From IMG/VR virus record IMGVR_UViG_3300046517_000932: a stretch of 29,312 nt of DNA; one strand, written 5' to 3'. This DNA is from an uncultured virus (IMG/VR IMGVR_UViG_3300046517_000932) (taxonomy: Duplodnaviria > Heunggongvirae > Uroviricota > Caudoviricetes). Within the stretch, counting starts at the first letter, position 1; every line of letters starts with the position of its first letter. The notes beneath the pieces are model-generated. The model was given only the letters and a program-made list of their open reading frames with translations, had not been told where the DNA came from and did no database searches. The position numbers and the translations under genes are program-made. Below are positions 3,001 to 29,311 of this stretch, one piece after another.

Positions 3001-5680
3001 CGTCGAATAGCTCCTTGGCGCGCACCTTGTCGGATTTGTTCTCTGCGCTCGACTCCTTGCGCTTCTTCTCCGCTTCGGCGGCCTGCTCCTTTTTGTAGCG
3101 ATCGATCTGCGCATCGATGTCGCCGCGCTTCGACAGCGGCACGTTCAACTCACCGTGATCCATCGGGCGCGCGGGCGCCGCCGGCTTTTCATCGGACTTC
3201 ACCGGATAGATCGGATCCTGACGGTCGTTGTCGCCGGCCGGCGGCATATCCGCGCTTGTCCAAAACCGAACGGTCGAATCCGCGTTCACCTGCGCTTTCC
3301 CGTCGACGATCGGATGCGCGATCACCAGGTGATTGCGTTGATAGTGCACGCGGTACAGGTTGCCCTTGCCGTCGCGAACCGTCGTGCCATCGTGCAATGC
3401 CGACGCGATCGTTACGCGACCGTCATCCGCCGCAGGCGTTTCCTCGCGATGCCAGCGCCCATCCTTGAAAACCAGGCCATCCGCGTTACGCTCGCCGTCT
3501 TTCGGGCCTGCGTCGACCGGCGCGGCCGCAGCCTCAGCAGGTTTCGCGATCACCAGCATGCGTGCATTGGCGCCGGTTTGCGACGGCAGATCCGAGCCCT
3601 TGAAGGTGTTTGCCGGCAGCTTCTCGACGTCGGCGCCGTGCTCATCGAGCCAGGAACGGAACGCCGTCGCGCGCTGATCGGTTCCGAAGAACACGCCCTC
3701 GCCCGCGATCGCGACCAGCTTGCCGCCCGGCTTGAGCATGTCGAACGCGCGCATGATGTGCGTCGCGTCCTTGCGATCGGAGAACGGGGGGTTCATGATC
3801 ACCGCGTCGTATTGCTTGCCCGGTTCGAACGTGTCGAAGTCGTGCGCCGCGATGTTGTGCCCCTTCGCGCTCAGCACGTTGCGCAAGGTGTCGGAGATCT
3901 CGATCGCGTCGACCGTTGCGCCGGCGTCTCGCGCCGCGTCCGCCAGGTGTCCGTTACCGGCCGACGGTTCGAGCACGGACATACCCGGCTTGACGCCCGC
4001 CATCTCCGCCATCTTGGCCGCGAGCGGTTTCGGTGTCGGGAAGAAATCGATGCCGACCTTCTTGCCGACCAGCGCGCGCTCCGCCGCCTTGATCGGATCC
4101 TCTTTTTTCACGCCGTCACGGAACGTCAGATATTCGGCGAGCGCCAGGCGCAATTCATGGTCCGTGTTGATGCCGAGGCGCGCCAGGCGGTCGACCTTCT
4201 TGACCTGCTCGACGTTCCACCAGCCGAGCCCATAGCTGATGTCTTTCTCGTCCAAGTACTTTTTGAGATCCTTGACCATCGCGCCGTCAGGACCGCCTGA
4301 CGCACGCAGGCGTTCGATCAGGGGCTTAGCGCCGCGCTTGCCTTGCAATTTATCGATCAGTTGCGACTTGTTGGCGCCGCCAGTGCCCCACGACGGCCGG
4401 TAAATTTTCGCGTTGCGGATGTCGTCCGGTTCCGGCGCGCGGCCCTTGCGCTCGAGCTGCTGCTGATACGTCAGATTTCGATCCGCTTCGTGCATAGCGC
4501 TGCGCACGGACGCATCGAGCGATTCGACGGCCGCGCGAGTGCTGATTCCCTTCAGATGCCGCGCCTCACCCGCCTCGATCGCGTCCGCCAGGTTGATCAT
4601 CGTGCCGGCGATCGCGAGACGCCTGCGCGCATCATCGTCCGCACCGGCCGCCATGCGCGCACGGCGTGCGGTATTGGCGAGACGATCGCGCCCGAGATCC
4701 GCGTTAGCCTGATCCGCGAGCTTTTGACCAGCCGCGCGCAGCTTTGCCGCCTGCTCTTTGCTACGGTCGACGGCCGCCGCGTTCTCTGCGCGCTTTTCCT
4801 CCTCGCCCGGCTCATACTTCGCGGCCGGCGCCGACACTGCCGCCTGCGTCGCGCCGCTGAGGTGCTTCTCGCGGATGAACCAGCCGCCGTCCTTGCGGAA
4901 CGTGTACGGATCGATCGCCGCCGCTTCGTGGCCGCTCAGATCCTTACGCACGACGCCGCGCAGGACTTTGCCCTTGGCAGTCGTGTGCTGGACGATATCG
5001 TGCGCGGCCGGCGCCTGCTCATCGGCCGCCGGCGGATCGATCCAGTCATTGATCTGGAACGGGACCACGCCGTTTTTCTGCTGCTTGCCCTGCGTCGTGC
5101 TCGCCAGGTGCGCGAATACCTTGCCGTCCTCCTCGCGCACGCGGCCGAGACTCAGGATCCGCCACGTGTCGCCGTCGTGCTCGACCGTCTTTTCGCCTGG
5201 CTTCGCTTGAGGCGGAAGGGGCTTCTCGTCCTTCGCCTGCTCCGGCGCGGCCGTTTCTTTCGCCGCCTCGACGACTGGCTCGACCTTCTTCTCCGGCAGG
5301 GGATCCGGCGCCGCCGAACGCATATCCGACACGTGCATACCCAGCCGCTCGATCACGGCGCCCGGCTCGAGCCCGTCGATATGCGCCATCGCGTCGATCA
5401 GCTTGGCACGTTGCTCCGGCCGCATCTCCATCAGCGTCGAGCGCATGCGCGCTTCGCCGCCGTGCTTGGCGAGGAACTTGTCGAGCTTGGGAGTTTTCTT
5501 AGCGGCTTTGGGCGCTTCAGGAGCGGGACCGAACAGGTGCCCCTGCTCGTGCGGTTTCATCGCAACGTGCGCCGTGCGCATGTGCGGTTTGACGTATGTG
5601 CCATCCTTCCGATAGCCGCCGGCGACGTGCACCGGCATGCTAAACAGCGGAAGCTGCGACTTGCGAAGAAAGAAGATCAT
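2..5680 (-). CDS. Giant polyvalent protein (>1890 aa, runs off the window's left edge): N6-adenine DNA methyltransferase + DarA-C-like + LPD5/LPD1-like segments
   Basis: Hand-translated open frame from ATG 5680 (MIFFLRKSQLPLF...) with no stop to position 2; absent from the ORF track because it has no stop in the window. MTase motifs DFFPTP, VLEPSAGNG and IMNPPF (~3555-4050). YAMVNRPVGISTAPK...RNGVAVYNRKLSDAETKQYEM (~1660-1840) resembles DarA C-terminal domain. DTGHIGGSRKE (~1170-1215) is LPD5-like. FGLRDVQSGNWV...LADL...SLNGRLAMAFGAR (<200) is LPD1-like. Confidence 0.88.
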   Translation of the reverse strand, partial: MIFFLRKSQLPLFSMPVHVAGGYRKDGTYVKPHMRTAHVAMKPHEQGHLFGPAPEAPKAAKKTPKLDKFLAKHGGEARMRSTLMEMRPEQRAKLIDAMAHIDGLEPGAVIERLGMHVSDMRSAAPDPLPEKKVEPVVEAAKETAAPEQAKDEKPLPPQAKPGEKTVEHDGDTWRILSLGRVREEDGKVFAHLASTTQGKQQKNGVVPFQINDWIDPPAADEQAPAAHDIVQHTTAKGKVLRGVVRKDLSGHEAAAIDPYTFRKDGGWFIREKHLSGATQAAVSAPAAKYEPGEEEKRAENAAAVDRSKEQAAKLRAAGQKLADQANADLGRDRLANTARRARMAAGADDDARRRLAIAGTMINLADAIEAGEARHLKGISTRAAVESLDASVRSAMHEADRNLTYQQQLERKGRAPEPDDIRNAKIYRPSWGTGGANKSQLIDKLQGKRGAKPLIERLRASGGPDGAMVKDLKKYLDEKDISYGLGWWNVEQVKKVDRLARLGINTDHELRLALAEYLTFRDGVKKEDPIKAAERALVGKKVGIDFFPTPKPLAAKMAEMAGVKPGMSVLEPSAGNGHLADAARDAGATVDAIEISDTLRNVLSAKGHNIAAHDFDTFEPGKQYDAVIMNPPFSDRKDATHIMRAFDMLKPGGKLVAIAGEGVFFGTDQRATAFRSWLDEHGADVEKLPANTFKGSDLPSQTGANARMLVIAKPAEAAAAPVDAGPKDGERNADGLVFKDGRWHREETPAADDGRVTIASALHDGTTVRDGKGNLYRVHYQRNHLVIAHPIVDGKAQVNADSTVRFWTSADMPPAGDNDRQDPIYPVKSDEKPAAPARPMDHGELNVPLSKRGDIDAQIDRYKKEQAAEAEKKRKESSAENKSDKVRAKELFDEVGAAMLAKHGAHFGEKKLRETMDSLMKWEPKKFIKLAEAFKKEQAGEAPAAAAPVAESTPLDRIKQHLDNDDADAAFAELSKMKFDELKATGWFGTGHGQTKAQFLADVKQRVARMTKTGRAARAHAANLTEIAERHQKAKHYRELSSGAMAMGGYDESKRDDKLVAEYEQKMRDARAEFAAASKDAGVPAEIAAKYPEMVAEAAPVAESDLESVGLLREFAGHWQYKFGVDGRWMTANAKADAVERATAAYHKTPEDQRLTRAQRDEKADAEEFEQSHRAYGSRSLPELRDKFEQMGGEIASNRKAGEREFNGGGRRTSAAVSNEAARNIAEERMRLGRYIAKREAMEGPKDGDRNADGLVFRDGRWHREESPAVEQAAPVESAKEHRYAMVNRPVGISTAPKDFVRTEDRPAVGEVHHDYARNGVAVYNRKLSDAETKQYEMAHMADGDDRAEYADDVAEALKRYAEPYIEMADNEPDQFRQTVADRLKSKAKGYVPSVGDMGQFADMVRDKLRAYAAPAAAAAEPVVEPAMPAPTNPDVELAEDREDLADELARNPHSDKAKALVKKVAERVAAREEPVEADVDRPSSENYRYADTGHIGGSRKERAALEVITRAKKEGARVFATAIDWDELEQNPREAKTLITKSNLFGEVDWPALRDGGMDPGAGFLVDRIYAAIGQEPSAESAQARKDYAIGLQSLRDRLEGCKTPADVTGVLDSLREEYEGTMLTAEEAEQYEAHGDASMALFHESKALRDETDKLYAEMGNIRAEMYGVEREVENRKRRGWAPKPDLDAKLADLKKRHDAADKKWGDALQKNKPRHDEIDAARSEFGRKREVLKLMAKVRNQTENPLHRAWNLMGDRFLGVIRYRSYKGSDAFANHVAAAKVGRIGWDWMEKEAKRAPRISKESARFQLKVADSFERVGGRTVAPDSTMALKEMFGLRDVQSGNWVLRDVASAKFHTEQCAGAFADLADLMGADDAHVSLNGRLAMAFGAR

Positions 5681-5708
5681 TAGGGGGCCTATTAAGAGCG
5701 TCCCCCAC

Positions 5709-5724
5709 ATGATTACGTCACGAC
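5709..5724 (-). promoter_or_regulatory. Putative late promoter
   Basis: GTCGTGAC-GT-AATCAT upstream of the giant gene. Confidence 0.55.
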
Positions 5725-6240
5725 GTCAGAAGCCTTATAGAATAAGACTCTTAGCGACTTGATCATCGCGGGTTTTTCCCGCGTCGCGCGGGCCTTCTCG
5801 ATGAACTCCGCGACGGGCATAGCGATGATGCCGCCAAAGAATCGCGGATCGTCGTAGTGCGCCAGATACGCTTTCTTTGCGGCCGCCATCGAGGCAAAGC
5901 CGAGGAAACACTTGTCCTCGTCGTACTTGCTCCAGTCCTTGCGCGTCATCTGGCGAACGATGTAGACCTCCGGCGCCGACTCGTCCGGACCCATATAGAC
6001 GTCAACCGGATCCCCGTCGACACCCTCCGTTCCGGCGATCTCGCCGTAGGCGTACTCGAACACGGTCCGCCACTTCGCGCCGGTCTCGTCGACGCCCTCG
6101 CGCACGGTGCCCGCCGGGTTTTCGATATTGATGTCGAGCCCGTTCCACTTCATGCGCAGCTTTTTGTAATTGCCGGCCGCCGCCTGCGCGGGAGTCGGTT
6201 TTTTCCAGCCGTCGGCACGGCCCTTCAACAGCAACATCAT
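5713..6240 (-). CDS. Inorganic pyrophosphatase-like (InPase) domain protein of the polyvalent-protein type
   Basis: GNYKK...GLDINIENPAG...YGEIAGTEGVDGDPVDVYMG...DEDKCFLGF...AYLAHY. Start re-assigned to ATG 6240 (MMLLLKG), which overlaps the upstream stop codon. Confidence 0.8.
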   Translation of the reverse strand: MMLLLKGRADGWKKPTPAQAAAGNYKKLRMKWNGLDINIENPAGTVREGVDETGAKWRTVFEYAYGEIAGTEGVDGDPVDVYMGPDESAPEVYIVRQMTRKDWSKYDEDKCFLGFASMAAAKKAYLAHYDDPRFFGGIIAMPVAEFIEKARATREKPAMIKSLRVLFYKASDVVT

Positions 6241-7385
6241 TTCGCCCCCAGTACGCTTCGCAGGTAGTCGCCGAATTCCTTGTCGTCCCCCGGCTCGTCT
6301 TGAATGGTCGGAACCCACCGGCCGCGACAGTGCGGATGTTGAGCTCCGGCCGCAATCCAGTACATCTCCTCCGGCTCGCGATGCACGAGGATGGTCCCGA
6401 CGCGCTTGCGCGGCGCATTGGATCGCCCCATGTTCGTCTTGCCCGGCCATATCTGTGTCGTGCCGTCCTTGTCCGGCGCGTCCGCCGCGACCACCTCCAT
6501 GATCGTGCCGTCGATCTTGCGGCACCAGGAGCAGGCATTGCGGTATTGCTCGACGCGCTTGAGCTTGGATCCGATCGGCATGCTCGAGACGTACCCCTGG
6601 TTCTGGTTCTCCGTCGTCTCCGTCTCCGCGATCCGCCGCCAGTCACGATTGAGCGTCGCGAACTCGTCGACGAGCGTCGTCTGCAGCGAGTGACGCGGCC
6701 CTGGCGTGCCGAGGAACGTCTGCTCCGTGTGCTCGAGCACGACCTGGCGCATGCGATGCCGCGTGTTATCGGCGACGCGCTGGACGTTCTCCACGCCGCG
6801 CACGCGCGCATAGTCGAGGATGATCGACTGCACCGGCGACATCGTGAACTGCGCACGCGCCGCGCTCACGGTCGCCGGAAGCGCCTCGAGCAGCTTGTCG
6901 GCCTGCTTGGCTGTCAGATTCTCAATGTTCGCCTGCACGCGGCCCATCATCGTCGAACGCACCGCGAGCCACTCCGCCTCAGTCCGGAGATCGTCCGGCG
7001 GCAGGTAGCGCATCGCGAGGTAGTCGACGACCATCATCCAGTCATCGAGATCAAACGCCGACGGCGGCAGCGCCTCGAGGTAGAGCTTGACGAGCGCCTG
7101 CTCGGACGCGGACCAGCGCTGCATGTATCCCTCCGGCCGCGCGACGCGCGATCCCCCGCGATGCTTCTCGCCGGCGAGCCACTGCTCGAGCTCCGTGCGG
7201 AACCCGTCGAGACGCATCAGTCCCCGCCGCGTGAACAACTCCACCAGGCGTCGCACGAACGGGTTTTCGTGCTCCGACCAGATCGAATCGTCGTCGTCAT
7301 GGCTGTGAATCGCCTTGTAGATCGTGTGCAGCGCGCGGTCGGACTGCTGCTCGGTCAGCTCGCCGATATCAAGAAGTAGGGTCAT
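6237..7385 (-). CDS. Phage head morphogenesis protein (SPP1 gp7/Mu F-like)
   Basis: RDWRRIAETE, CSWC and C-terminal HPHCRGRW motifs; located near the portal gene. Confidence 0.75.
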   Translation of the reverse strand: MTLLLDIGELTEQQSDRALHTIYKAIHSHDDDDSIWSEHENPFVRRLVELFTRRGLMRLDGFRTELEQWLAGEKHRGGSRVARPEGYMQRWSASEQALVKLYLEALPPSAFDLDDWMMVVDYLAMRYLPPDDLRTEAEWLAVRSTMMGRVQANIENLTAKQADKLLEALPATVSAARAQFTMSPVQSIILDYARVRGVENVQRVADNTRHRMRQVVLEHTEQTFLGTPGPRHSLQTTLVDEFATLNRDWRRIAETETTENQNQGYVSSMPIGSKLKRVEQYRNACSWCRKIDGTIMEVVAADAPDKDGTTQIWPGKTNMGRSNAPRKRVGTILVHREPEEMYWIAAGAQHPHCRGRWVPTIQDEPGDDKEFGDYLRSVLGAK

Positions 7386-8045: not shown

Positions 8046-8644
8046 TCGTCTTTCTGGCCGCCCTTCTCGTGCCGCGTGATCTCGTTCCAATGGATCTGAT
8101 GCACGCGGCCGCTCGAGTCTTTCACATGCGCGCCAGTTTTCCCGGTCTCACCGATCACCTCGCCGGATCCCGTGAAGTCACCCGCCTCGAAATGTAGGCG
8201 ATCGCCGGCCGCGACGTTGTGCGAGCCAAATTCGCCCTTAGGCTCCTCCGGCTCCTCTTTCTTCAACGGCGCGTCGCCCTTCGCAGCTTTGGCGAACAGC
8301 ACCAGGCGATTTCCGCCGAACGCTTTCACGATCATCTTGTCCTCGCGCGCATCCGGCGCCACAGTAAGGTATCGACGCATGCCGGCCGCGTCCTCGACGA
8401 TCATCCCATCTTCGCCCTGGTCGATCACGTTGTAATGCTGCGTCGCGCGCTTCTTCGCGCCGAGCACGTGTTTCCAGCCGACCTTATGCCGCTCGCCGTC
8501 GCAGTCCACCGTCGCGCCGTGCTTGCCGTGCGCGACCACGCGCCCCGCGCGCGGCCCCTTCACGTGATTGATGTAGACCTCGTCCCCGATGTCGACGCCC
8601 GGGTTCTGAACGGGTTGGTCTTTCTGCTTGGGATCCATGATCAC
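8039..8644 (-). CDS. Hypothetical virion-associated protein (possibly two SH3/KOW-like beta repeats)
   Basis: Overlaps the portal stop codon. Similar segments VDIGDEVY...GRVVAHGKHGATV...HKVGW and VAAGDRLHF...GEVIGETGKTGAHV...HQIHW. Confidence 0.7.
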   Translation of the reverse strand: MIMDPKQKDQPVQNPGVDIGDEVYINHVKGPRAGRVVAHGKHGATVDCDGERHKVGWKHVLGAKKRATQHYNVIDQGEDGMIVEDAAGMRRYLTVAPDAREDKMIVKAFGGNRLVLFAKAAKGDAPLKKEEPEEPKGEFGSHNVAAGDRLHFEAGDFTGSGEVIGETGKTGAHVKDSSGRVHQIHWNEITRHEKGGQKDES

Positions 8645-10419
8645 GGCTCGATGGTGAAGACCGGCAGGCCGAACGACTTTGTCATCTCATCCGCGTCATC
8701 GCCCTCAGCGCCGCCGCCGACGTCGTCCGGATTGACTGCGCCCGCATCGGCCGCGCCAGGTTTGCCAAAATCGCCGCCGGCATCGTTCTGCGCATCAGGC
8801 TTGCCGAACGCCGCCGCGCCCTTGTCGTCCTCGCCATCCTTCGGCGCGCCCGGTTGCTCTTGCCCCGGTTGCCCGAAATCGCCCTCCTCCGGTTGCTGCT
8901 GCTGGTTCACTGCCTGCCAAACCGGGAGGAGCGACGGATTCAACGGCGCCGACCCGATGCCGCCCGGGATCTTCGGGAGATCGTCCTCCGCGCGCATCTC
9001 GTCCCAAGTCATCGTCAGCTTCTTGCGATCCTGCGCGAGCTGCGGATCCTCCTCGTCGAGACCAGTCCACCGGAAAACGTACTTGTCGCCGAATTCCTGC
9101 ACGATAAAGTCCGTGAACAGGTTCTCAAAGTACGCGAGCAGCGGCCGCAGGCCCTTGTCTTTCGAGTTGGCGAGCTTTTCCTCTGTGTCGTTGCCGGAGA
9201 GCGACGACGACGTGCCAGCACTGAACGACTCGAAATTGATCTCGTCCGGACCGATGCCGTAGATCGCGCAGATCAGCGACGACAGGAACGACATCCACTT
9301 TGCGAACATCATCTCGTTCGCCTCGACGCCGAAATTCTCGAACGCCGCGCGCGACTCCTGATCCTTGGACACCATCACCGGCAGCGCCCATTGATTGTTG
9401 ACGCCCTTGACCATCGAATTCCACATGCGTTTGAACGCCGCGACGTCCTGCTCGCTGAAATTACCGGTCAGGTGCAACAGTCCTTTCGGGATCTGATTCG
9501 AGTCGAAATACTTCGTGTTGTACGTGAAGGCATTCAGAAAGCCCGTCACCACGCGCACGAGCAGCTCGGTTTCCGACAGACCATAGCCGCCGATCATCAC
9601 GTCGGTGCGCGGGTTGCGCGGCACGTAGATCAGATCGTCGTACGTGTAGAGCGATCGGATATTGCCCTGCACGACCTGCAGCGCAAAGATCTCGTCGTCG
9701 CCCTGGTAGCCCTGCTCGGTGCAAAGGCGCAGCGTCGCGCCGTCGACCGCGTACATCCCGTCGAGACCCAGGGACTTGTCGCGCTTCCACTCGGTTTCGA
9801 TGCCGGCCGAGTCGAGCGTCAGACTGTCGCGCACCAGTTTCGCCATGAACGACGAGAAGTCATCGCGCTTGAGACGCATCCGTGTGCGCGGCCTGGTCTC
9901 CCAACCGGAATTGAGGAAGAAGTTTTCGAGCAGCGCGATCGACTTTTTGTCGTCCGAGCTCGCATGGCCGTCCGTGTCTTTCAGCGTGATCTTGAAGCCC
10001 GGACCCTTGCCATTCGTCTGCACGCGGCAGAAGCGCTGCACCTGGCGGATCCGCGTCATGATCACCGCGTTCAGGATCGGCGTGCCCTCGACCATCGAGC
10101 GCATGGAGTCGAAACTGAATGCACTCTGTTTCTCGTACCAGTCACCCATCACGCTTACCTGCATGTCGTCCAAGAACACGGACTGCATGCCGGGCAGCTT
10201 CTTTTGCGCCGCCAAGGAGGGATTCGGGATCACGCGCGACGCGCTGAGCGCTTTGCTCATCTCCGTCGCCTCGTACTGATCCTGCATGAACTGAATCAAG
10301 GGAAGCATCTGATCCGGCGACGCGGTAGCCAGCGAAGACTTTTGCAACTCAGCCTGCGCGGCCGTGCGCTCATCCGCTGGCGCGGATCCGGAGAAAGCAA
10401 TGTGGGCGAGATTTTCCAT
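8641..10419 (-). CDS. Phage portal protein
   Basis: VRDSLTLD, YAVDGATLR, PRNPRTD...GYGLSETE, YNTKYFDSNQIPKGLL, ICAIYGIGPDEINF, SKDKGLRPLL and an acidic tail. ATG 10419 preferred over GTG 10425 (see late-promoter finding). Confidence 0.88.
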   Translation of the reverse strand: MENLAHIAFSGSAPADERTAAQAELQKSSLATASPDQMLPLIQFMQDQYEATEMSKALSASRVIPNPSLAAQKKLPGMQSVFLDDMQVSVMGDWYEKQSAFSFDSMRSMVEGTPILNAVIMTRIRQVQRFCRVQTNGKGPGFKITLKDTDGHASSDDKKSIALLENFFLNSGWETRPRTRMRLKRDDFSSFMAKLVRDSLTLDSAGIETEWKRDKSLGLDGMYAVDGATLRLCTEQGYQGDDEIFALQVVQGNIRSLYTYDDLIYVPRNPRTDVMIGGYGLSETELLVRVVTGFLNAFTYNTKYFDSNQIPKGLLHLTGNFSEQDVAAFKRMWNSMVKGVNNQWALPVMVSKDQESRAAFENFGVEANEMMFAKWMSFLSSLICAIYGIGPDEINFESFSAGTSSSLSGNDTEEKLANSKDKGLRPLLAYFENLFTDFIVQEFGDKYVFRWTGLDEEDPQLAQDRKKLTMTWDEMRAEDDLPKIPGGIGSAPLNPSLLPVWQAVNQQQQPEEGDFGQPGQEQPGAPKDGEDDKGAAAFGKPDAQNDAGGDFGKPGAADAGAVNPDDVGGGAEGDDADEMTKSFGLPVFTIEP

Positions 10420-10425
10420 AGACAC

Positions 10426-19865: not shown

Positions 19866-19998
19866 TCATCTGCTCACAGTTTCGCGCCTAGCCTTATTCG
19901 ACGCAGCACCGGGCGCCCCGGCCCAATCCCCCGGGCGCACATAGGGCGCACTATCAAAACACACGCATGTACATAGGTACATAGGCACAGAGGTACAT

Positions 19999-20682
19999 AT
20001 GAAGGAACACCCCATTCTGTTCAACCGCGAGATGATCCGCGCGCTCCATTCAGGCCGCAAGACGCAGACACGCCGAATGGTCACGCCGATGCGCGGAATG
20101 CAATCCGAGTGGCTCACTATCGAGGGGATCAACAGAAGCCCGCGCCTTTACACCTGCCACACGAATCCCGATCGCCTTTTCGGCGCGCAGATGGAACATC
20201 CACGAGGCGGCCCGCTAGGTTGGGTCAAGTGCCCGTATGGCGAGCCCGGGGACCGGCTATGGGTGCGCGAGACGTGGAGCGCCGACTTCGCGAACCACTA
20301 CCCCTACGATCGCGTGTGGTACGCCGCCGACAGCGACCGGGCGCACGACATAGAGATCCGCGACGGCGTGAAGGGCATCTACAGCCCTGAGAGCCGGGAA
20401 TTCGTTCCATTTCGCTGGCGACCGAGCATCCACATGCCACGCGCCGCGTCGCGCACGGACCTCGAGATAACCCGCGTGCGCGTCGAGCGCCTGCAGGACA
20501 TCAGCGAGGAGGACGCCGAGGCGGAAGGCGTCGACTTCCTGCGCCACGTGCCCGACGCGGACGAGACGCTATCCGCTCGAGACCTGTACCGGATCCTATG
20601 GGACAGCATCAACGAGGCGCGCGGATTCGGCTGGAGCACGAACCCCTGGGTATGGGTCGTCGAATTCCCAAGCGCATTTTGA
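19999..20682 (+). CDS. ASCH/PUA-like phage protein
   Basis: PILFNREMIRALHSGRKTQTRR...CPYGEPGDRLWVRETW...WRPSIHMPR...VERLQDISEEDAEAEG...NPWVWVVEF. Confidence 0.8.
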   Translation: MKEHPILFNREMIRALHSGRKTQTRRMVTPMRGMQSEWLTIEGINRSPRLYTCHTNPDRLFGAQMEHPRGGPLGWVKCPYGEPGDRLWVRETWSADFANHYPYDRVWYAADSDRAHDIEIRDGVKGIYSPESREFVPFRWRPSIHMPRAASRTDLEITRVRVERLQDISEEDAEAEGVDFLRHVPDADETLSARDLYRILWDSINEARGFGWSTNPWVWVVEFPSAF

Positions 20683-20686
20683 TTGA

Positions 20687-20845
20687 TATGTACCTATGTA
20701 CCCATGTGCATCGGTACATAGCTACATCCACACGTCCGTACCTGCACACGCACGTGCGCTCATAGGTGCGGACGTTTCTACGTGCGCCGGCACGCACGTG
20801 CCAGCCTACAAACCGATGTATGATCCAGCGCACCTACATACGGAG
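20687..20845. repeat. Degenerate short (4/8-bp period) repeats upstream of parA; candidate centromere/par operator
   Basis: TATGTACCTATGTACCCATGTGCATCGGTACATAGCTACAT...CCTACATAC; an inverted copy of the first 15 bp lies at 19969-19983. Confidence 0.5.
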
Positions 20846-20851
20846 GTGCCA

Positions 20852-21568
20852 ATGTCACGGATCATCACAATAGGAATGAAGAAGGGCGGCCCGGGCAAGA
20901 CGACGATCGCGACGAACATCGCCGCAATGTGCGTCACGGCCGGCATGAAAACGCTTCTGGTCGACACCGACGGCCAGCGCACGTCGGCGCACTGGGCAGG
21001 CAATCGGAGAGAGCAGGGCGTCGAACCGGCGATCACCTGCGTCGAGAAAACGGGCAAATGCGGCCGCGATATCGCCGAGCTCGCCGACAATTACGACGTC
21101 GTCATCGTCGACGCCGGCGGACACGACAGCATCGAACTCCGCCAGGCGTTCGCCGTCGCGGATCTTTGCATTATGCCGCTGCGACCGTGCCAGCCCGACG
21201 TCTGGACACTGCCGGACATGCTCGAGCTGATCAACGAGATCGAGGAGAAATCCGGCACCCGGCCGCGCGCGTCCGTTCTGATCAACGGCAAGGAAGCGCC
21301 GCGCAAGGTGAGGGGAGGGTACCGGGAGACACAGGACACGCGCGACACTATCGCCTCGATCCGGCAGGCGTTCGGCGACGCCGTGCCCGTGCTGGAGTCA
21401 ATGGTTTCCTATCGCCCGGCATTCTGGCGCGCGTTCCCCGCCGGAATGAGCGTCGTCGAGCTGCCCGAGTCGGCCCGCGCCGAGAGCGCCAAGGAAGAAC
21501 TGACGAACCTTTTCAAGGAGATTTTCGATGTCGAATACTCGTCAGCCGATCAGCGTCGTGCAGCCTAA
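20852..21568 (+). CDS. parA: ParA-family (short, type Ib-like) partition ATPase
   Basis: Deviant Walker A KGGPGKTT, LVDTDGQ and YDVVIVDAG; RBS GGAGG before ATG 20852. Confidence 0.9.
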   Translation: MSRIITIGMKKGGPGKTTIATNIAAMCVTAGMKTLLVDTDGQRTSAHWAGNRREQGVEPAITCVEKTGKCGRDIAELADNYDVVIVDAGGHDSIELRQAFAVADLCIMPLRPCQPDVWTLPDMLELINEIEEKSGTRPRASVLINGKEAPRKVRGGYRETQDTRDTIASIRQAFGDAVPVLESMVSYRPAFWRAFPAGMSVVELPESARAESAKEELTNLFKEIFDVEYSSADQRRAA

Positions 21569-21945: not shown

Positions 21946-22218
21946 TTCGTGTTTTGACCGACCGCTGGATTCGTGTTTTGACCGACCGATTTACCATGAT
22001 TAAAGAATGATTAGAAAGGATTAGCACTTCGCAAAACCAGTCATAAGCACATGATTTCAAAAGGTTTTGCAAAATGCGCCGGTCGGTCATAACACGAAGA
22101 TTGGTCGCTCAAAACACGAATGCCGGTCGGTCATAACACGAACGTGGTCGGTCAAAACACGAATCTGGTCGGTCAAAACACGAATCGACGGTCGCTCAAA
22201 ACACGATAGTTATGCACA
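21946..22218. repeat. Iteron replication origin
   Basis: Six direct 18-bp iterons GGTCGSTCAWAACACGAW at 22081, 22103, 22125, 22146, 22167 and 22190; two inverted copies at 21946 and 21970; AT-rich GATTA-repeat spacer between the clusters; DnaA box TTATGCACA at 22210-22218. Confidence 0.88.
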
Positions 22219-22264
22219 ACGGGTTTCGGCGCTTGCGTGCTACGCTTCAGCGCGGAGGAACGAC

Positions 22265-23095
22265 ATGAAAAACGCCATTGATCTCGCCAAAGGCCTGCAG
22301 ACGAAAGCAGCGGGGCGCCGGCCGCCGGCACAGCTCGAGTTCTGGTCTGATCGCGTGCGAGGTCTGCCGAACGCGTTGGCGCGTTGCGCTCTGTTCACTG
22401 CCGGCAGCAAGAAGGACGTCCGCGCCGTGTACCGCGACGAGCCGATCGTCTCCCTTCAGAACTTCACCGTTTTATACACCGGCGACGAGCTCCGCCAGGA
22501 CGACCAGGACGTTTTCCTGCAGCTCGTACACCTGGCGCGAGGTCTACCGCTCGGATCGAGGATCGAGATCACCGGCAACGCAGTCCTGAAGGTGCTCGGA
22601 TGGGGACGATCGAAGCGGGACTATGCGCGCCTCCGCGCGAGCTTGAAGCGTCTGAAAAAGGCCAACGTCGAGGTGAACGGCGACGACAATCGAGGCTTCA
22701 TCGGTAGCTTACTGATGACGCTCGCCTGGGAAGGCCAGGACGCCGACGACGCCGACGGCGAGGGCACTAGCACGCACTGGAACATCTCGCTTGATCCGAA
22801 GATCATCGCGCTCTTTGGAACCGACACCTACTCACTGATCGACTGGGAGATGCGACTCAGACTCGCGCCATTGGCGAAATGGTTGCACAGCTTCTACATC
22901 ACGCACCGCGAGCCGATGCCCTACAAGGTGGAGACGCTGCACAGACTGTGCGGCAGCCGCACACGACTCCTTAAGCACTTTCGCGAGTCACTGAAGGACG
23001 CGCTCGAGGAGCTGAAGCAGGTTGGATTCCTCGTCGAATTCGACATTGGTACGGACCTGGTAACGGTGCGTCGCCGGTATGCGCTTGCCGCGTAG
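22265..23095 (+). CDS. Plasmid replication initiator, TrfA-like
   Basis: RGLPNALARCALF, YTGDELRQDDQDVFLQL, LAKWLHSFY and LHRLCGS; RBS GGAGG; adjacent to the iterons. Confidence 0.85.
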   Translation: MKNAIDLAKGLQTKAAGRRPPAQLEFWSDRVRGLPNALARCALFTAGSKKDVRAVYRDEPIVSLQNFTVLYTGDELRQDDQDVFLQLVHLARGLPLGSRIEITGNAVLKVLGWGRSKRDYARLRASLKRLKKANVEVNGDDNRGFIGSLLMTLAWEGQDADDADGEGTSTHWNISLDPKIIALFGTDTYSLIDWEMRLRLAPLAKWLHSFYITHREPMPYKVETLHRLCGSRTRLLKHFRESLKDALEELKQVGFLVEFDIGTDLVTVRRRYALAA

Positions 23096-25039: not shown

Positions 25040-25228
25040 ATGGACATGACAACGCGCAACAATTTCGATGACTGGGCCTCAGCAGTGTCGCGCGAGCTGA
25101 CGAGTCTCGGCATGCCGATGCTCGAGGCAAAGCACGTACCGTACGACAACGAAGACTGGTTTCGGCACGAATTCGACGCCGGCGAGAGCCCCGCACTGTC
25201 GGCGGCAGACTGGCACGCCGCACAGTGA
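25040..25228 (+). CDS. Small hypothetical protein
   Basis: RBS AGGA; 62 aa. Confidence 0.55.
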   Translation: MDMTTRNNFDDWASAVSRELTSLGMPMLEAKHVPYDNEDWFRHEFDAGESPALSAADWHAAQ

Positions 25229-25236
25229 GGACCGCC

Positions 25237-25464
25237 ATGAGCACCGACAAGCGCTGGACATACCGGCAGATCACCGACGCCGCCGAGGAACAGATCAAGC
25301 TTGCGATCAAGGAAGCAGACGAAAATCCCGATCTTGGCTATCTCTACCGGCAGCGAGCGAACGGCGCCTACGAACTCTGGTTCAAACTGACACAGGGATG
25401 GATCAACGATGGAGACATCGGTCGACTGCGAGATCTGATGAAAGAGCGCGCCAACAGATCATAG
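25237..25464 (+). CDS. Small hypothetical protein
   Basis: MSTDKRWTY after GAGG; followed by a terminator. Confidence 0.6.
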   Translation: MSTDKRWTYRQITDAAEEQIKLAIKEADENPDLGYLYRQRANGAYELWFKLTQGWINDGDIGRLRDLMKERANRS

Positions 25465-25489
25465 ATCTGTCGCGTCACTCGCCAAAAGC

Positions 25490-25525
25490 AAAGCCCGGCA
25501 AGCGTTTCCGCTGTCGGGCTTTTTC
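25490..25525. terminator. Bidirectional intrinsic terminator
   Basis: AAAGCCCGGCA-loop-TGTCGGGCTTTTT, with A/T tracts on both sides. Confidence 0.75.
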
Positions 25526-25626
25526 TTTGGGCGCCTATAGGGCGCAAATCAGGGATTGGTCACTTCATCTCGCGTGCTCCAGGGTGCGTTAAAGGGATCT
25601 CAATATGGGTGCTACCGAAGAACCTC

Positions 25627-25642
25627 ATGATTCCGTCACGAC
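25627..25642 (-). promoter_or_regulatory. Putative late promoter with no downstream ORF
   Basis: GTCGTGAC-GG-AATCAT. Confidence 0.5.
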
Positions 25643-25679
25643 GGTACGGTCGCGCACTTAATTATTTTTGATCATGTGC

Positions 25680-25709
25680 TTAACCTTTTTTGATCAAGAA
25701 TGTTATGAT
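25680..25709 (+). promoter_or_regulatory. Extended -10 promoter with operator-like site, driving the large RNA candidate
   Basis: TGnTATGAT at 25701-25709; TTAACCTTTTTTGATCAA at 25680-25697 resembles the phage operator. Confidence 0.6.
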
Positions 25710-25716
25710 TCGTCTC

Positions 25717-26512
25717 ATGCGTTCGGGAGTAGGCACCCGATATGCCGTGAAAGCGGACGTGACGCGGTGGTTAGAGTCCACGCCGGAGACGTAACCGGCA
25801 CGATTGCGCTGAGGGTGAGCATCCGCTGCCGGAGCGGCCCGAAAGGGATATTCGGATGGGGATTAGCGAGCAGTGCCTCATGTGAAAAAACCATCGCAGC
25901 ACAGTATGGCTAAGACACCGGCCAGGACTGTTCGAGAAGCACGCGAGACTGGTGTAGATGGAGTCGCGAGCCGAAGGGCTTACGCATTGACGTCCGAAGG
26001 TGCCAGCGCGTGACTATCGTTAGCGGATTGACTGGCCCTAAGCAGTCGTTTTCAAAGCGCGTTCCTCGAGCGCTCTTTGCAAACCCAGCGCTACGGCGCA
26101 CACAAACCGGCCGCACCGATAGAGCGGACGCACGAGCCTCGTAACGTGCCGATTGACTGGCGTAATGCAGTCGCCAATCCGACGTCTCGACGTCTACGCA
26201 GATCAGGCAAACGCGGCCCTCTGCTTACGGTTGAATCAGCGTGACGGCCGCCAGAGCGCGGCACTCTCAAGCGTGACGATCGCATCCGGGACAGCATGGC
26301 GCCCCGGAGACTTGTCGAAGTCCGTTCCCCGGCGAGCGGTCGTCAGACTTGAGGGTGTAACCAACCTATCGTGGAATGCAGGTTCGTGTGAGGTGATAGG
26401 CGCACGAGGAAACCGGCGGATTGACGCCACGCCTGCCACTCTCAACCAGGTCTGTCGCAGTACCTCCCCGTAATGCGATTTCAGGGCGCCCTTCAACCGG
26501 CGCCCTTTTTTT
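25717..26512 (+). ncRNA. Candidate large (~790 nt) ornate non-coding RNA
   Basis: No credible ORF; promoter- and terminator-bounded; many hairpins (GAAA and UACG tetraloops, T-loop-like loop) and nested long-range helices. Confidence 0.7.
26483..26512 (+). terminator. Intrinsic terminator
   Basis: AGGGCGCC-CTTCAACC-GGCGCCCT-TTTTTT. Confidence 0.8.
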
Positions 26513-26514
26513 CG

Positions 26515-26949
26515 TCACGTTCGCTCAAGCACGAGAAGCCCGCTTTTCGTCACCCCGCAGCGCCGCCAGCCGGCCGCGATAAAGCAATATCCAGGGTTTG
26601 CTGACCGCACCCGGCGCGCGTCGACGAAGGTGTAATGCCGGCTATCAGGCCAGAGGCAATCAGCAATCGCGTCCGCCTGTCGAATGAGTGTCGAGCTGCG
26701 ATGCGCCGATTCGTTGCGGAAGACGGCGCAGTTGATGCCTTGCTGGCCGCTGTCATCGATGAATTTTCGCCAAGCAAAGCAGGCGTCGCCGGCGGCCGTT
26801 CTGAGCACGACCTTTTCCCCTGGTCCGACAAACAGTTTGCGCGTGCGGCCGTCGACGTACCGGCGCGCTGAGTAGTGTCGTTCATAGAGCTCGAGACAGT
26901 CCTTGTCGCCGTCCTTCGTCAGCCACCATAGAGGCGCCGCGTCGCTCAC
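26515..26949 (-). CDS. Possible Mom/GNAT-like DNA-modification protein
   Basis: RHYS, GINCAVFRNES and YTFVD...NPGYCFIAAGW; GTG 26949 coupled to the upstream stop, with RBS GAGGT. Confidence 0.55.
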   Translation of the reverse strand: MSDAAPLWWLTKDGDKDCLELYERHYSARRYVDGRTRKLFVGPGEKVVLRTAAGDACFAWRKFIDDSGQQGINCAVFRNESAHRSSTLIRQADAIADCLWPDSRHYTFVDARRVRSANPGYCFIAAGWRRCGVTKSGLLVLERT

Positions 26950-27143
26950 GCGATCACCTCGCGGATCCGCGCGCACACCGTCGCCGGCCCGTCTAGGATC
27001 AGATCCTGCACCTCCTCGCGCGACGCCGCGTCGAGATCGTTGAACGCCGCCGCTTCTTCTTCGCCGATGACGAGCGGCCCGTTCGTGCGCAGCTCGAGGA
27101 AGGGATTCACCGCGCCGATCAGCGCGTATCGATGGAACCGCAT
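26946..27143 (-). CDS. Small hypothetical protein
   Basis: RBS AAGGAG; late-promoter motif upstream. Confidence 0.65.
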   Translation of the reverse strand: MRFHRYALIGAVNPFLELRTNGPLVIGEEEAAAFNDLDAASREEVQDLILDGPATVCARIREVIA

Positions 27144-27172: not shown

Positions 27173-27188
27173 ATCATTGCGTCACGAT
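27173..27188 (-). promoter_or_regulatory. Putative late promoter
   Basis: ATCGTGAC-GC-AATGAT upstream of the gene starting at 27143. Confidence 0.5.
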
Positions 27189-27538
27189 TCCGCGCACGGT
27201 TCCCAAACCTTCACGCCCGCGTCGCGAGCTCGCGCCATCATGTCGGCCGTGCCGTCTCCACCAGGAAACGCCGTGACGCCATCCGGTTGCCAGTCGTCGA
27301 GCATGCGCGCGTTGCGCAGCGGCCCGGCGCGCTTGCCGTACTTCTTCCATTCGGCCGGCACGCCGAGATATGGCACCTGGCGCGCCTTCGCCCAGTCCTC
27401 CGCGTGCTTGTCGGCACCCGTCGGACAGGCGCCGTGAATCAGCAACCTGATCAGCCGCTTGGCGTGCGCGCGATCGAGCGCCGCATAGACGGCGCCGACG
27501 TCGCGGTAGTCGCGCCCGCCGCAGACGAGCAGCCTCAT
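27182..27538 (-). CDS. YspA/SLOG-family (DUF2493-like) protein
   Basis: MRLLVCGGRDY, IHGACPTGAD, AEWKKYGKRAGPLRNARM and FPGGDGTADM. Confidence 0.85.
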   Translation of the reverse strand: MRLLVCGGRDYRDVGAVYAALDRAHAKRLIRLLIHGACPTGADKHAEDWAKARQVPYLGVPAEWKKYGKRAGPLRNARMLDDWQPDGVTAFPGGDGTADMMARARDAGVKVWEPCAES

Positions 27539-28138: not shown

Positions 28139-29311
28139 CTAGTAAGCCTTCTCGATGAACAAAATACAGCCTGGCGATGCCGGCCGCGTGATGATGCCGC
28201 GTTCCTCGCAGTTGCCCGTATCCGGATCGAATGACACACAGCGGCCGCAGCGCTCGCCAGGCGGAATGTGCTCGAAGATCTGCGCGACGGCCGGCGGCAT
28301 ACCGACCTGCTTCGCCACCTCGACGAGATCCTTTTTCGGGTTGACGTCCGGCATGATGAACGTGCTCGTCCCGTGCGCGCGCGACCAGGCAACGTCGCAA
28401 AGCATGTTGGCGTAGGAAAAGTGAGGGTCGATGCCGACCTTCTTGACCGATCGCCGATACGCGTTCGTCTCCTCGTCTTTCTCCGCGACGAGCGCCGTCT
28501 TTGTGAAGTGGTGGAACGCGCGCGGCAGCACGGCGGCCGTCTTCATCACGCCCTTGTCCATCACCTCCTGAATCAGCCCTTGCGGATCCGGAAACAGGCA
28601 CGTCGCCGACGTGATTCGCGCCATCGAAACCTGCATGCACTTGTACTGGTCCATGCGCAGCGTATAGCGATCGCGCGCCTCCTCGTCGGTGCGCCGCTCT
28701 GACACGTCGAGCTTTGGCGCGTCGCCCCACTGAATCATCCCCTCCTTGACCGTGCCGAAGCTATCGCAGATGAACACCCGGCCAGGATGCCGCGCGGCGA
28801 ACTTCTTCGCGTCGTTGTAGTTCGGGTTGATTTCGACCACGCACACCGCGACGCCGTACAGATCCATGAGCTCGGACGAGCGCGCGAACGGATCAGCGTC
28901 GTAAGTCTCCTCGACGTGAATCGTCGCCTGGCGCCCGTCGGGCAATCGCTCTTTGATCACGTGCACGTTGAAATTGCCCATCTGGTCAATTCCCATGTAC
29001 GTATCGCGCGCGCGAGACTTCCAGACGATCGGCGGATTCGCCAGCTTGCCGGCCTCGACGCAGGCCGCGCAGTGCTCGAGCGTCACCGGCACCTGCGACG
29101 GATCGAGGTACGGCTTGCCGAGCTTCCGGTTAAAGAAGTTTTTCATGTCCGTCGCCGATGTGAACGCGTCCATGATTTCGCCGGCCGCGATCGTCGGAGA
29201 CAGGAACTGGGGGAAGTGAATCGAGCGGATCCGCAGCGGCCGCTCTTTCTTCTCGACGCTGTAGTCGATCGGCTTGTCCGCCGCTGGGTTATCCGCGATC
29301 CACTCGCCGAC
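28139..29311 (-). CDS. Terminase large subunit (GpA-like), C-terminal part; 5' end outside the window
   Basis: Frame is open to the window edge (VGEWIADNP...FFNRKLGKPY); RNase H-like nuclease motifs MGIDQMG, VVEINP and DPHFSYA. Confidence 0.8.
   Translation of the reverse strand, partial: VGEWIADNPAADKPIDYSVEKKERPLRIRSIHFPQFLSPTIAAGEIMDAFTSATDMKNFFNRKLGKPYLDPSQVPVTLEHCAACVEAGKLANPPIVWKSRARDTYMGIDQMGNFNVHVIKERLPDGRQATIHVEETYDADPFARSSELMDLYGVAVCVVEINPNYNDAKKFAARHPGRVFICDSFGTVKEGMIQWGDAPKLDVSERRTDEEARDRYTLRMDQYKCMQVSMARITSATCLFPDPQGLIQEVMDKGVMKTAAVLPRAFHHFTKTALVAEKDEETNAYRRSVKKVGIDPHFSYANMLCDVAWSRAHGTSTFIMPDVNPKKDLVEVAKQVGMPPAVAQIFEHIPPGERCGRCVSFDPDTGNCEERGIITRPASPGCILFIEKAY

Follow-up and report, generated by a model that had tools for sequence, protein, structure and literature searches.

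What does a phage make from a kilobase of DNA that holds no credible gene? The question is raised by the record IMGVR_UViG_3300046517_000932, an uncultured virus of the Caudoviricetes from a rhizosphere metagenome, of which we analysed a stretch of 29,312 nucleotides (the window). A gap at 25465-26514 had been proposed in an earlier note on this DNA to encode one large ornate non-coding RNA of ~790 nt. We find that the gap most likely makes several small folded RNAs, processed from an array, and not one giant ornate RNA. It holds at least three family-level RNA modules whose sense is the + strand; each has its own distribution across the phages of Proteobacteria, frequently within or next to tRNA or tmRNA clusters. 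That the gap is free of genes is borne out: it contains 11 open reading frames (ORFs; 43-106 aa), none of which has a PHROGs or Pfam match at E <= 0.01. Coordinates of the features are given in Table 1.

One of the modules belongs to a known RNA family. We scanned positions 25400-26700 with 4227 Rfam (15) models at E <= 10, and the whole window at the gathering score. The Proteo-phage-1 RNA motif (RF03044) is the sole match above cut-off in the whole window; the match is full-length (model positions 1-82 of 82), and family membership extends to 25823-25901 only. Models for GOLLD, ROOL, OLE, raiA, introns, RNase P, tRNA and tmRNA gave no match at E <= 10 over 25400-26700, so that the Rfam scan yields one accepted family but no large-RNA family. 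ARAGORN called no tRNA or tmRNA gene in the window, permuted tmRNA included, and the Rfam models found none; both do detect tRNAs and a permuted tmRNA in Bordetella phage PHB04. The copy in the window shows the features of the family: a single base links its two hairpins, and the conserved letters of the loops are present. A further loop-tail pairing can be drawn by eye outside the Rfam structure line (consensus GCCGG/CCGGC, window GCGA/UCGC).

With a pattern taken from the Rfam consensus we obtained six canonical Proteo-phage-1 loci (L090-L095), none of which matches the gap by BLAST at E <= 0.1. The 11-mer CGCGAGACTGG of the 3' extension is present at a similar 3' offset in three of the six and is one letter off in two more (alignment A1). 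In these lambdoid-type viral contigs the conserved non-coding block spans ~230 nt (about 1429-1660) and starts with a terminator, the 82-nt Rfam model being only part of the conserved element, and morons are inserted after the block. Five canonical copies have NinG or other nin-type genes on one side and holin genes on the other, with terminators 3' of those that were scanned; the sixth follows head genes. The window differs in two respects: its match accounts for 79 of about 800 nt, and its copy belongs to a unit that stands by itself where two operons converge. Searches for RF03044 in 3 and then 151 bacterial genomes found no match, a result that is uninformative because control genomes gave none either. 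Proteo-phage-1 is a candidate sRNA of Weinberg et al. 2017 (PMC5737381); the main text of that paper does not mention it, and a narrow literature search did not find the name.

The second module, which we term M1, forms the leader. We define it as ACG, a hairpin H1 abutting a hairpin H2 (GCCGG-AGACGTAA-CCGGC), and then AC. The window core runs in this order, with H1 (GTGG-TTAGAGT-CCAC) at 25767-25781 and H2, the 20-mer GCCGGAGACGTAACCGGCAC, at 25782-25801. It agrees with the definition at 20/20 positions of H2, and its H1 stem, GTGG/CCAC, is of a type found in 3 of 38 H1-bearing sequences, its own included. The exact 20-mer is present in 55 viral contigs, and M1 copies also occur in five isolate phages. 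Of 42 distinct sequences, 38 have H1 abutting the 20-mer, where shuffling gives 5.6; there are 11 stem types, with double changes at three of the four pairs, and ACG usually precedes the hairpin. BLAST of sub-segments found 26 nt (25777-25802) at 100% identity in Enterobacter phage Arya and E. coli phage Bas97, in both cases in unannotated DNA; a stretch of 27 nt (25775-25801) recurs at 93% identity in PHB04. A three-way alignment carries the likeness back to CATGCG at the predicted transcript start.

What lies downstream of M1 varies: an ORF with a ribosome-binding site at many loci, a tRNA-Arg only 5 nt later in L111 and phage IFTN2 (loci L111 and L104 have a tRNA 5 nt from M1), and the bracket described below at further loci. 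No Rfam family covers the module at any of the 55 loci. Proteo-phage-1 is found at just one of them (L152, 41.9 bits), so the two modules are mostly independent. Upstream of M1, two further elements were seen. Sub-threshold matches to Methylophilales-1 RNA lie on the same strand ~160-250 nt away in L109 (1078-1172) and L122 (649-743), scoring 52.1 bits where the cut-off is 79.9 (E about 2e-8), and may represent a further module of the same building set. About 70 nt upstream, a conserved stretch, GCGGGGAAGCATGG...TTCCGCG...CCATGC, is present in L106, L108, L110, L112, L127, L129, L131, L133 and L138; read by eye, it would fit an H-type pseudoknot immediately 5' of M1.

The third module, the bracket, encloses a folded cargo. 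Our definition comprises GGCAC, a helix P1 (CACyCUCAnG/CnUGAGGGUG), a small internal loop, a covarying helix P2 and a variable cargo. The window conforms to it, with P1 of 11 bp (GCACUCUCAAG/CUUGAGGGUGU), a 2x2 loop (CG/GA), P2 of 10 bp and 52 nt of cargo; the helix is intact, with 21 pairs and G.U wobbles only. The cargo, with three hairpins, is predicted to form a cloverleaf-shaped four-way junction, which is not called as a tRNA and has a tetraloop at the place of the anticodon loop. Eight other instances were found, in Ralstonia phage Gamede (directly after the block that it has in common with the window), Burkholderia phage Bcep22, L136, L137 (twice), L155, L159 and L121. In these nine instances, counting that of the window, P1 stays conserved; P2 covaries, its pairs being G-C, C-G, A-U and U-A. 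The 3'-half motif has 12 matches in 725 kb (both strands), 8 of them with the 5' half 63-96 nt upstream on the same strand. A tenth instance, in the 60.7-kb contig L161, is located between tRNA-Met and a run of five tRNAs; its first 10 P1 pairs (CACUCUCAAG/CUUGAGGGUG) are identical to those of the window, and the contig has a 131-nt stretch in common with Bcep22 at 90% identity.

Read by eye, the cargo and P2 of L121 are tRNA-like, with a typical D-arm and T-arm; ARAGORN makes no call there. A trailing hairpin, GAAUGCGCAGGCUGAUGCGC, follows P1 directly in L121, L136, L140, L161 and Gamede, and the same hairpin is present in L134 and L124, where no bracket was scored. A second canonical bracket reading, for 25981/26236, was rejected because its 3' word, CAGCGTGACGG, occurs at three fetched loci with no 5' half nearby. 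The bracket pattern gave one match in metagenomes, inside an ORF that reads by eye as a copper-protein gene.

Two further blocks connect the middle of the gap to individual phages. The Bcep22 block, together with a long hairpin and the GCGC-TACG-GCGC hairpin, is flanked by the two D1 hairpin units (26023-26173), whose 26-nt pattern has no viral match. Its counterpart in Bcep22 sits in a 420-nt unannotated gap between two HNH genes, near tRNA-Ser, and the pair preserves two hairpins. In the Gamede block, pairing of the first hairpin survives two double changes, and a common reading frame is excluded by two 1-nt indels. The consensus fold of window and Gamede is more stable on the + strand (-27.25 kcal/mol) than on the - strand (-19.65 kcal/mol). 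Each block is found in one other phage, which has no further piece of the gap at E <= 0.05. The Gamede-block pattern matches only Gamede itself among viral contigs and nothing among metagenome contigs; its 6 matches in genome contigs are about the chance number, and none extends beyond 29 nt.

The unannotated 1-kb gap of Gamede also contains a 5'-truncated TnpB-like ORF (L082 2683-3321, NC_054958 about 3104-3742) with a Pfam Cas12f1-like TNB domain (E 3.8e-24) and an OrfB_IS605 match. A weak match to HgcC-like RNA (29.2 bits) covers the 3' end of this ORF, as expected for a guide-RNA remnant. For the window, a TnpB pseudogene was rejected, the best tblastn match (E 0.077) being outside the gap. 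Downstream of the bracket, the 3' segment folds no better than shuffles and has no relative that we could find. It contains a second copy of CACTCTCAA (26437-26459, 74% like 26262-26284; repeat D2), which could serve as an alternative pairing partner of 26348-26357.

If these parts were joined in a single multi-domain fold, the gap would encode one large ornate RNA of ~790 nt, a new class comparable to GOLLD and ROOL. Such an RNA would be bounded by a single promoter-like site and a single terminator, the CGGATTG/CAATCCG helix would enclose a 144-nt multi-hairpin domain, and the minimum free energy of the whole region is indeed low (z -2.72, none of 20 shuffles as stable). The - strand is nearly as stable, however (z -2.10, 20 shuffles). 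We folded seven sub-segments on each strand against 200 shuffles, and one + segment, 26250-26370, stands out (z -3.90, 0/200 equally stable; - strand z -1.18); the remaining six range from z -0.98 to +0.84. These values confirm the domain closed by CACTCTCAAG/CTTGAGGGTG with its three inner hairpins, and favour the + strand for it. Perfect complementary 6-, 7- and 8-mers number 89, 16 and 2 in 25717-26512, against 93.9, 25.2 and 6.2 in shuffles, so the long-range helices ATGCGT/ACGCAT and CGGATTG/CAATCCG and the possible GGTTGA/TCAACC pseudoknot, on which the earlier note had relied, are unremarkable. Comparison with shuffled controls thus upholds one significant sub-domain and speaks against a single long-range ornate fold.

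The distribution of the parts also argues against one large RNA. Among more than 160 fetched loci, none has two or more of the parts in the same order, except Gamede (block, then bracket), and no locus has the whole region in common with the window; the parts have spread independently over other phages. GOLLD (RF01998) and ROOL (RF03087; PMC12286853) are likewise phage-associated, long, gene-free and structured, and are reported near tRNA genes (PMC5737381). The window differs from them in having no large-RNA model match at E <= 10, no sign of a single conserved fold and parts that recur piecemeal in other phages. We therefore regard a single ornate RNA as unlikely. Other claims of the earlier note fared better. 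Every motif that it quoted is in place, and a non-coding + strand is supported by the absence of ORF families, by Proteo-phage-1 on the + strand and by the bracket, which is stable only on that strand; the U.G pairs of the bracket helices agree with the + strand, as had been argued from wobbles.

We searched for relatives of the unit as a whole. BLAST of the entire gap against 50,697 phage records returned only the 70-nt Gamede piece, and a plasmid collection gave no match. Eighty viral loci with a homologue of a flanking gene (<=85% protein identity) match only the coding part 26514-26600, not the gap, and five loci with TrfA relatives have the TrfA region alone in common with the window. In one of these relatives (L098) converging genes come almost immediately after a homologue of the 79-aa neighbour gene, leaving no gap; the search with this 79-aa gene found one weak locus. 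Rfam models detected only one tRNA at 17 synteny loci. Since the 80 flanking-gene loci have no similarity to the gap and L098 has no gap at this place, the RNA unit looks like an accessory insertion. Contigs from four metagenome DNA runs are identical to the window across the gap, leaving no variation to exploit, and none of the 14 runs listed is an RNA run.

M1 and bracket modules occur beside or between real tRNA genes in L111, L104, L161 and PHB04. The PHB04 stretch (L102 1-1320, NC_047861 about 45113-46432) carries no annotated feature, yet contains three tRNA genes, for Met, Asn and Pro, along with a permuted tmRNA in two pieces (Rfam 104.5 bits; ARAGORN tag ANDDYIRAAA). The same neighbourhood raises the possibility that the gap is a decaying remnant of a phage tRNA or stable-RNA cluster, whose tRNAs have been lost and whose degenerate cargo and other parts are functionless leftovers. 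The window has no called tRNA or tmRNA where related brackets and M1 copies adjoin real tRNAs, the cargo has its tetraloop in place of an anticodon loop, and most sub-segments fold at chance level. Decay sits poorly, however, with a Proteo-phage-1 copy still above the curated cut-off, an M1 core that matches at 20/20 positions with H1 still paired, a bracket helix without a broken pair, and a promoter-like site and terminator that are both intact. This explanation is quite unlikely in our judgement.

Our preferred explanation is an accessory, self-contained non-coding unit, an 'RNA moron', at the convergent operon junction of a TrfA/ParA phage-plasmid. One precursor of ~800 nt would be transcribed rightwards, starting at the promoter-like site near 25709 and ending with the terminator at 26512. 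It would form a chain of separately evolving modules: the M1 leader with its two coaxial hairpins, Proteo-phage-1 with its 3' extension, the Bcep22 and Gamede blocks, and the bracket round its cloverleaf-shaped cargo. The same building set is found in tRNA or stable-RNA clusters and in leaders of other Proteobacteria phages. Host RNases would cut the precursor into several small stable RNAs, as they do tRNA-cluster and rRNA precursors, both at the leader-trailer helix of the bracket, whose ~21 bp match an RNase III site in size, and at other points. Once released, the Proteo-phage-1 RNA and a tRNA-shaped RNA with no anticodon loop may then act in trans on host or phage targets.

Known systems offer parallels for such an array. 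Phage tRNA clusters yield stable small RNAs and their precursors, for example the species 1 and 2 RNAs of phage T4. The window array resembles them as a promoter-driven, gene-free series of small folded RNAs and differs in having no recognisable tRNA or tmRNA. In rRNA operons leader and trailer pair to form RNase III stems, and the mRNAs of phage T7 contain RNase III hairpins. The bracket is similar in that sequences flanking a structured cargo form a helix of ~21 bp with a small internal loop, and in L121 it continues what looks like the acceptor stem of a tRNA; the conserved P1 sequence has no counterpart in those sites. The resemblance is one of possible mode of action, not of family membership.

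Several observations weigh against the processed array. Transcription, transcript ends and processing are all predictions from the sequence. Six of the seven + sub-segments fold no better than shuffles, the Proteo-phage-1 segment among them (z -0.06), and portions of the gap may be plain spacer. M1 loci were selected by exact H2 match, so the invariance of H2 holds by construction; the covariation of H1 does not. The Gamede and Bcep22 blocks each have a single partner. The bracket set is small, and its conserved P1 sequence would also fit a protein-binding or DNA site; a trailing hairpin of the GAAUGCGCAGGCUGAUGCGC type is not clear in the window, which has only GAAUGCAGGUUCGUG, 16 nt further on. 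No relative has the same overall arrangement, so covariation leaves room for a higher-order fold joining the modules. We nevertheless consider the processed array probable.

In a bolder version, the array would descend from phage tRNA clusters, would have lost its tRNAs and would now work as a delivery cassette. The precursor would be marked by M1, and cut brackets would release the anticodon-less tRNA-shaped RNA and the Proteo-phage-1 RNA, which would counter tRNA-directed defences or RNA-processing enzymes of the host by acting as decoys or regulators. This would amount to a swappable 'RNA moron' system of Beta- and Gammaproteobacteria phages, not yet described as such; a narrow literature search found nothing relevant on modular tRNA-like phage RNA arrays. 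We put this version forward tentatively, as rather improbable in its full form.

M1 and Proteo-phage-1 might instead act in cis, much as nut, put or rRNA-leader elements do, by affecting RNA stability or the RNA polymerase that transcribes them, and so control read-through antisense to the converging late genes. The setting of the five canonical Proteo-phage-1 copies between nin-type and holin genes, with terminators after them, is that of a late-gene leader, M1 is often followed closely by an ORF that has a ribosome-binding site, and the two-hairpin form with its one-base linker is reminiscent of put RNA. Yet no + strand gene follows the window terminator, the next gene converges, and 600 nt of further structured modules separate the motifs from that terminator. 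Moreover, of 48 distinct loci only 3 have a promoter-like site within 220 nt upstream of M1; on the other strand 2 do. A leader acting in cis is thus very unlikely.

An element that works as DNA would be a TrfA-iteron plasmid origin, an attachment site or a transposon remnant. The first of these is suggested by trfA, 2.4 kb upstream, and by CTTGAGGGTG, which resembles part of the RK2 iteron TGACA(G/C)(A/T)TGAGGGGC (PMC9499019). The iteron-like word, however, occurs three times in the gap in mixed orientation with no phasing, and a true array lies elsewhere, at 21946-22218. There, six 21-22-bp direct iterons (GGTCGGTCAwAACACGAA type, 22078-22207) follow two inverted copies (21946-21988), and a perfect DnaA-box match is found at 22210; these are predicted to mark the plasmid origin. 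The gap was accordingly rejected as oriV, the phased array upstream of trfA removing that reading. The iterons and the annotated start of the TrfA ORF overlap, so that trfA probably begins further downstream. An attachment site might be expected from Bas97, where M1 lies just after the integrase gene, but a search of 5,426 E. coli genomes found no match to the M1 region of Bas97. The M1 20-mer, with one mismatch allowed, is in 0 of 401 sampled bacterial genomes, and so does not derive from a host gene; both attP and a host-gene fragment were rejected on these results. As for a transposon remnant, the Gamede gap has its unannotated TnpB fragment, but the gap of the window has no TnpB similarity. 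Strand asymmetry and G.U pairs favour RNA over DNA. Action as DNA is highly improbable, and is largely refuted here.

Table 1. Position, strand and description of features in the window.
Feature	Position	Strand	Description
Portal	8641-10425	-	PHROGs
ParA-like protein	20696-21568	+	PHROGs
TrfA	22067-23095	+	Pfam; 2.4 kb upstream of gap
Last gene of upstream + operon	25225-25464	+	Left neighbour of gap
Intrinsic terminator of upstream operon, then short GGGCGCC/GGCGC hairpin	25482-25547	+	Inverted repeat I2 at 25482-25530
Two 18-nt direct repeats (CTTAA...TTTTTGATCA)	25657-25696		22-nt spacing; repeat family D4; AT-rich patch
Sigma-70-type promoter-like site, extended -10	25680-25709	+	TTAACC, 18-nt spacer, TATGAT; TG before second hexamer; 9/12
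Leader with module M1	25716-25803	+	Core 25762-25801
Proteo-phage-1 RNA motif (RF03044)	25823-25901	+	53.8 bits, gathering score 42; E 3.1e-7 (whole window)
3' extension of Proteo-phage-1 element	25902-25990	+	CGCGAGACTGG (25942-25952); ACACCGG/CTGGTGT and AGCC-GAAG-GGCT hairpins
Two 26-nt hairpin units	26023-26048, 26148-26173	+	81% alike; repeat D1
Bcep22 block	26097-26152	+	84% identity, 56 nt, Burkholderia phage Bcep22 9001-9054
Gamede block	26176-26245	+	Three hairpins; 84% identity, 70 nt, Ralstonia phage Gamede, E 2e-9
Bracket module	26261-26358	+	GGCAC, P1, 2x2 internal loop, P2, cargo
3' segment	26371-26475	+	Fold z +0.84; no relative found
Intrinsic terminator	26483-26512	+	Stem 26483-26506, 8 pairs (7 G-C), then TTTTTTT
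Last gene of converging operon	26515-26976	-	Right neighbour of gap
Large terminase	28139-29311	-	PHROGs
HicB-like protein	in window		PHROGs

The gap lies at the convergent junction of a + operon and a - operon. The terminator of the upstream operon is outside the RNA unit and is its left border; this segment is 79% identical over 62 nt to PHB04 (L102 3298-3357), where it follows a regulator gene. The two D4 repeats overlap the -35 hexamer of the promoter-like site and are possibly an operator. A consensus scan gave two promoter-like sites in 2 kb, against 0.6 expected from shuffles; one is in the gap, in agreement with the extended -10 described in the earlier note. The strong right-hand terminator was also confirmed on the + strand, with its T-run. 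On the - strand the stem is followed by GAAAT and no T-run, and the terminator is predicted to be effective on the + strand only. A resemblance of 26483-26512 to the Rfam terminator-bearing sRNA (24.9 bits, cut-off 50) was not counted as a match.

That the genome is a phage-plasmid, as previously proposed, is supported by the portal, large terminase, ParA, TrfA and iteron array. Clusters of an inverted 8-bp repeat (ACATAGGT type) at 19963-20005 and 20692-20726 flank a 227-aa gene upstream of parA and are likely a partition site or operator. A protein of >1900 aa with methyltransferase and DarB-like matches is encoded on the - strand at 2-5710, next to one with a minor-head or DarB-like domain (5713-6525, -), which suggests an injected anti-restriction polyprotein of the P1 Dar type. 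A small YspA/SLOG-family protein (PF10686, E 3.9e-22; 27182-27538, -) is encoded among the late genes beside the RNA unit.

Many gene-free stretches of phage genomes remain unexplained, and the present case illustrates that a kilobase candidate for an ornate RNA can resolve into a set of reusable RNA parts. Neither M1 nor the bracket corresponds to a family in Rfam 15, and both are now defined well enough for covariance models and for mapping their distribution. Together they place Proteo-phage-1, an orphan family, in a larger building set. Should the released RNAs turn out to mimic tRNAs or to act as regulators, the array would be the RNA counterpart of protein-coding morons.

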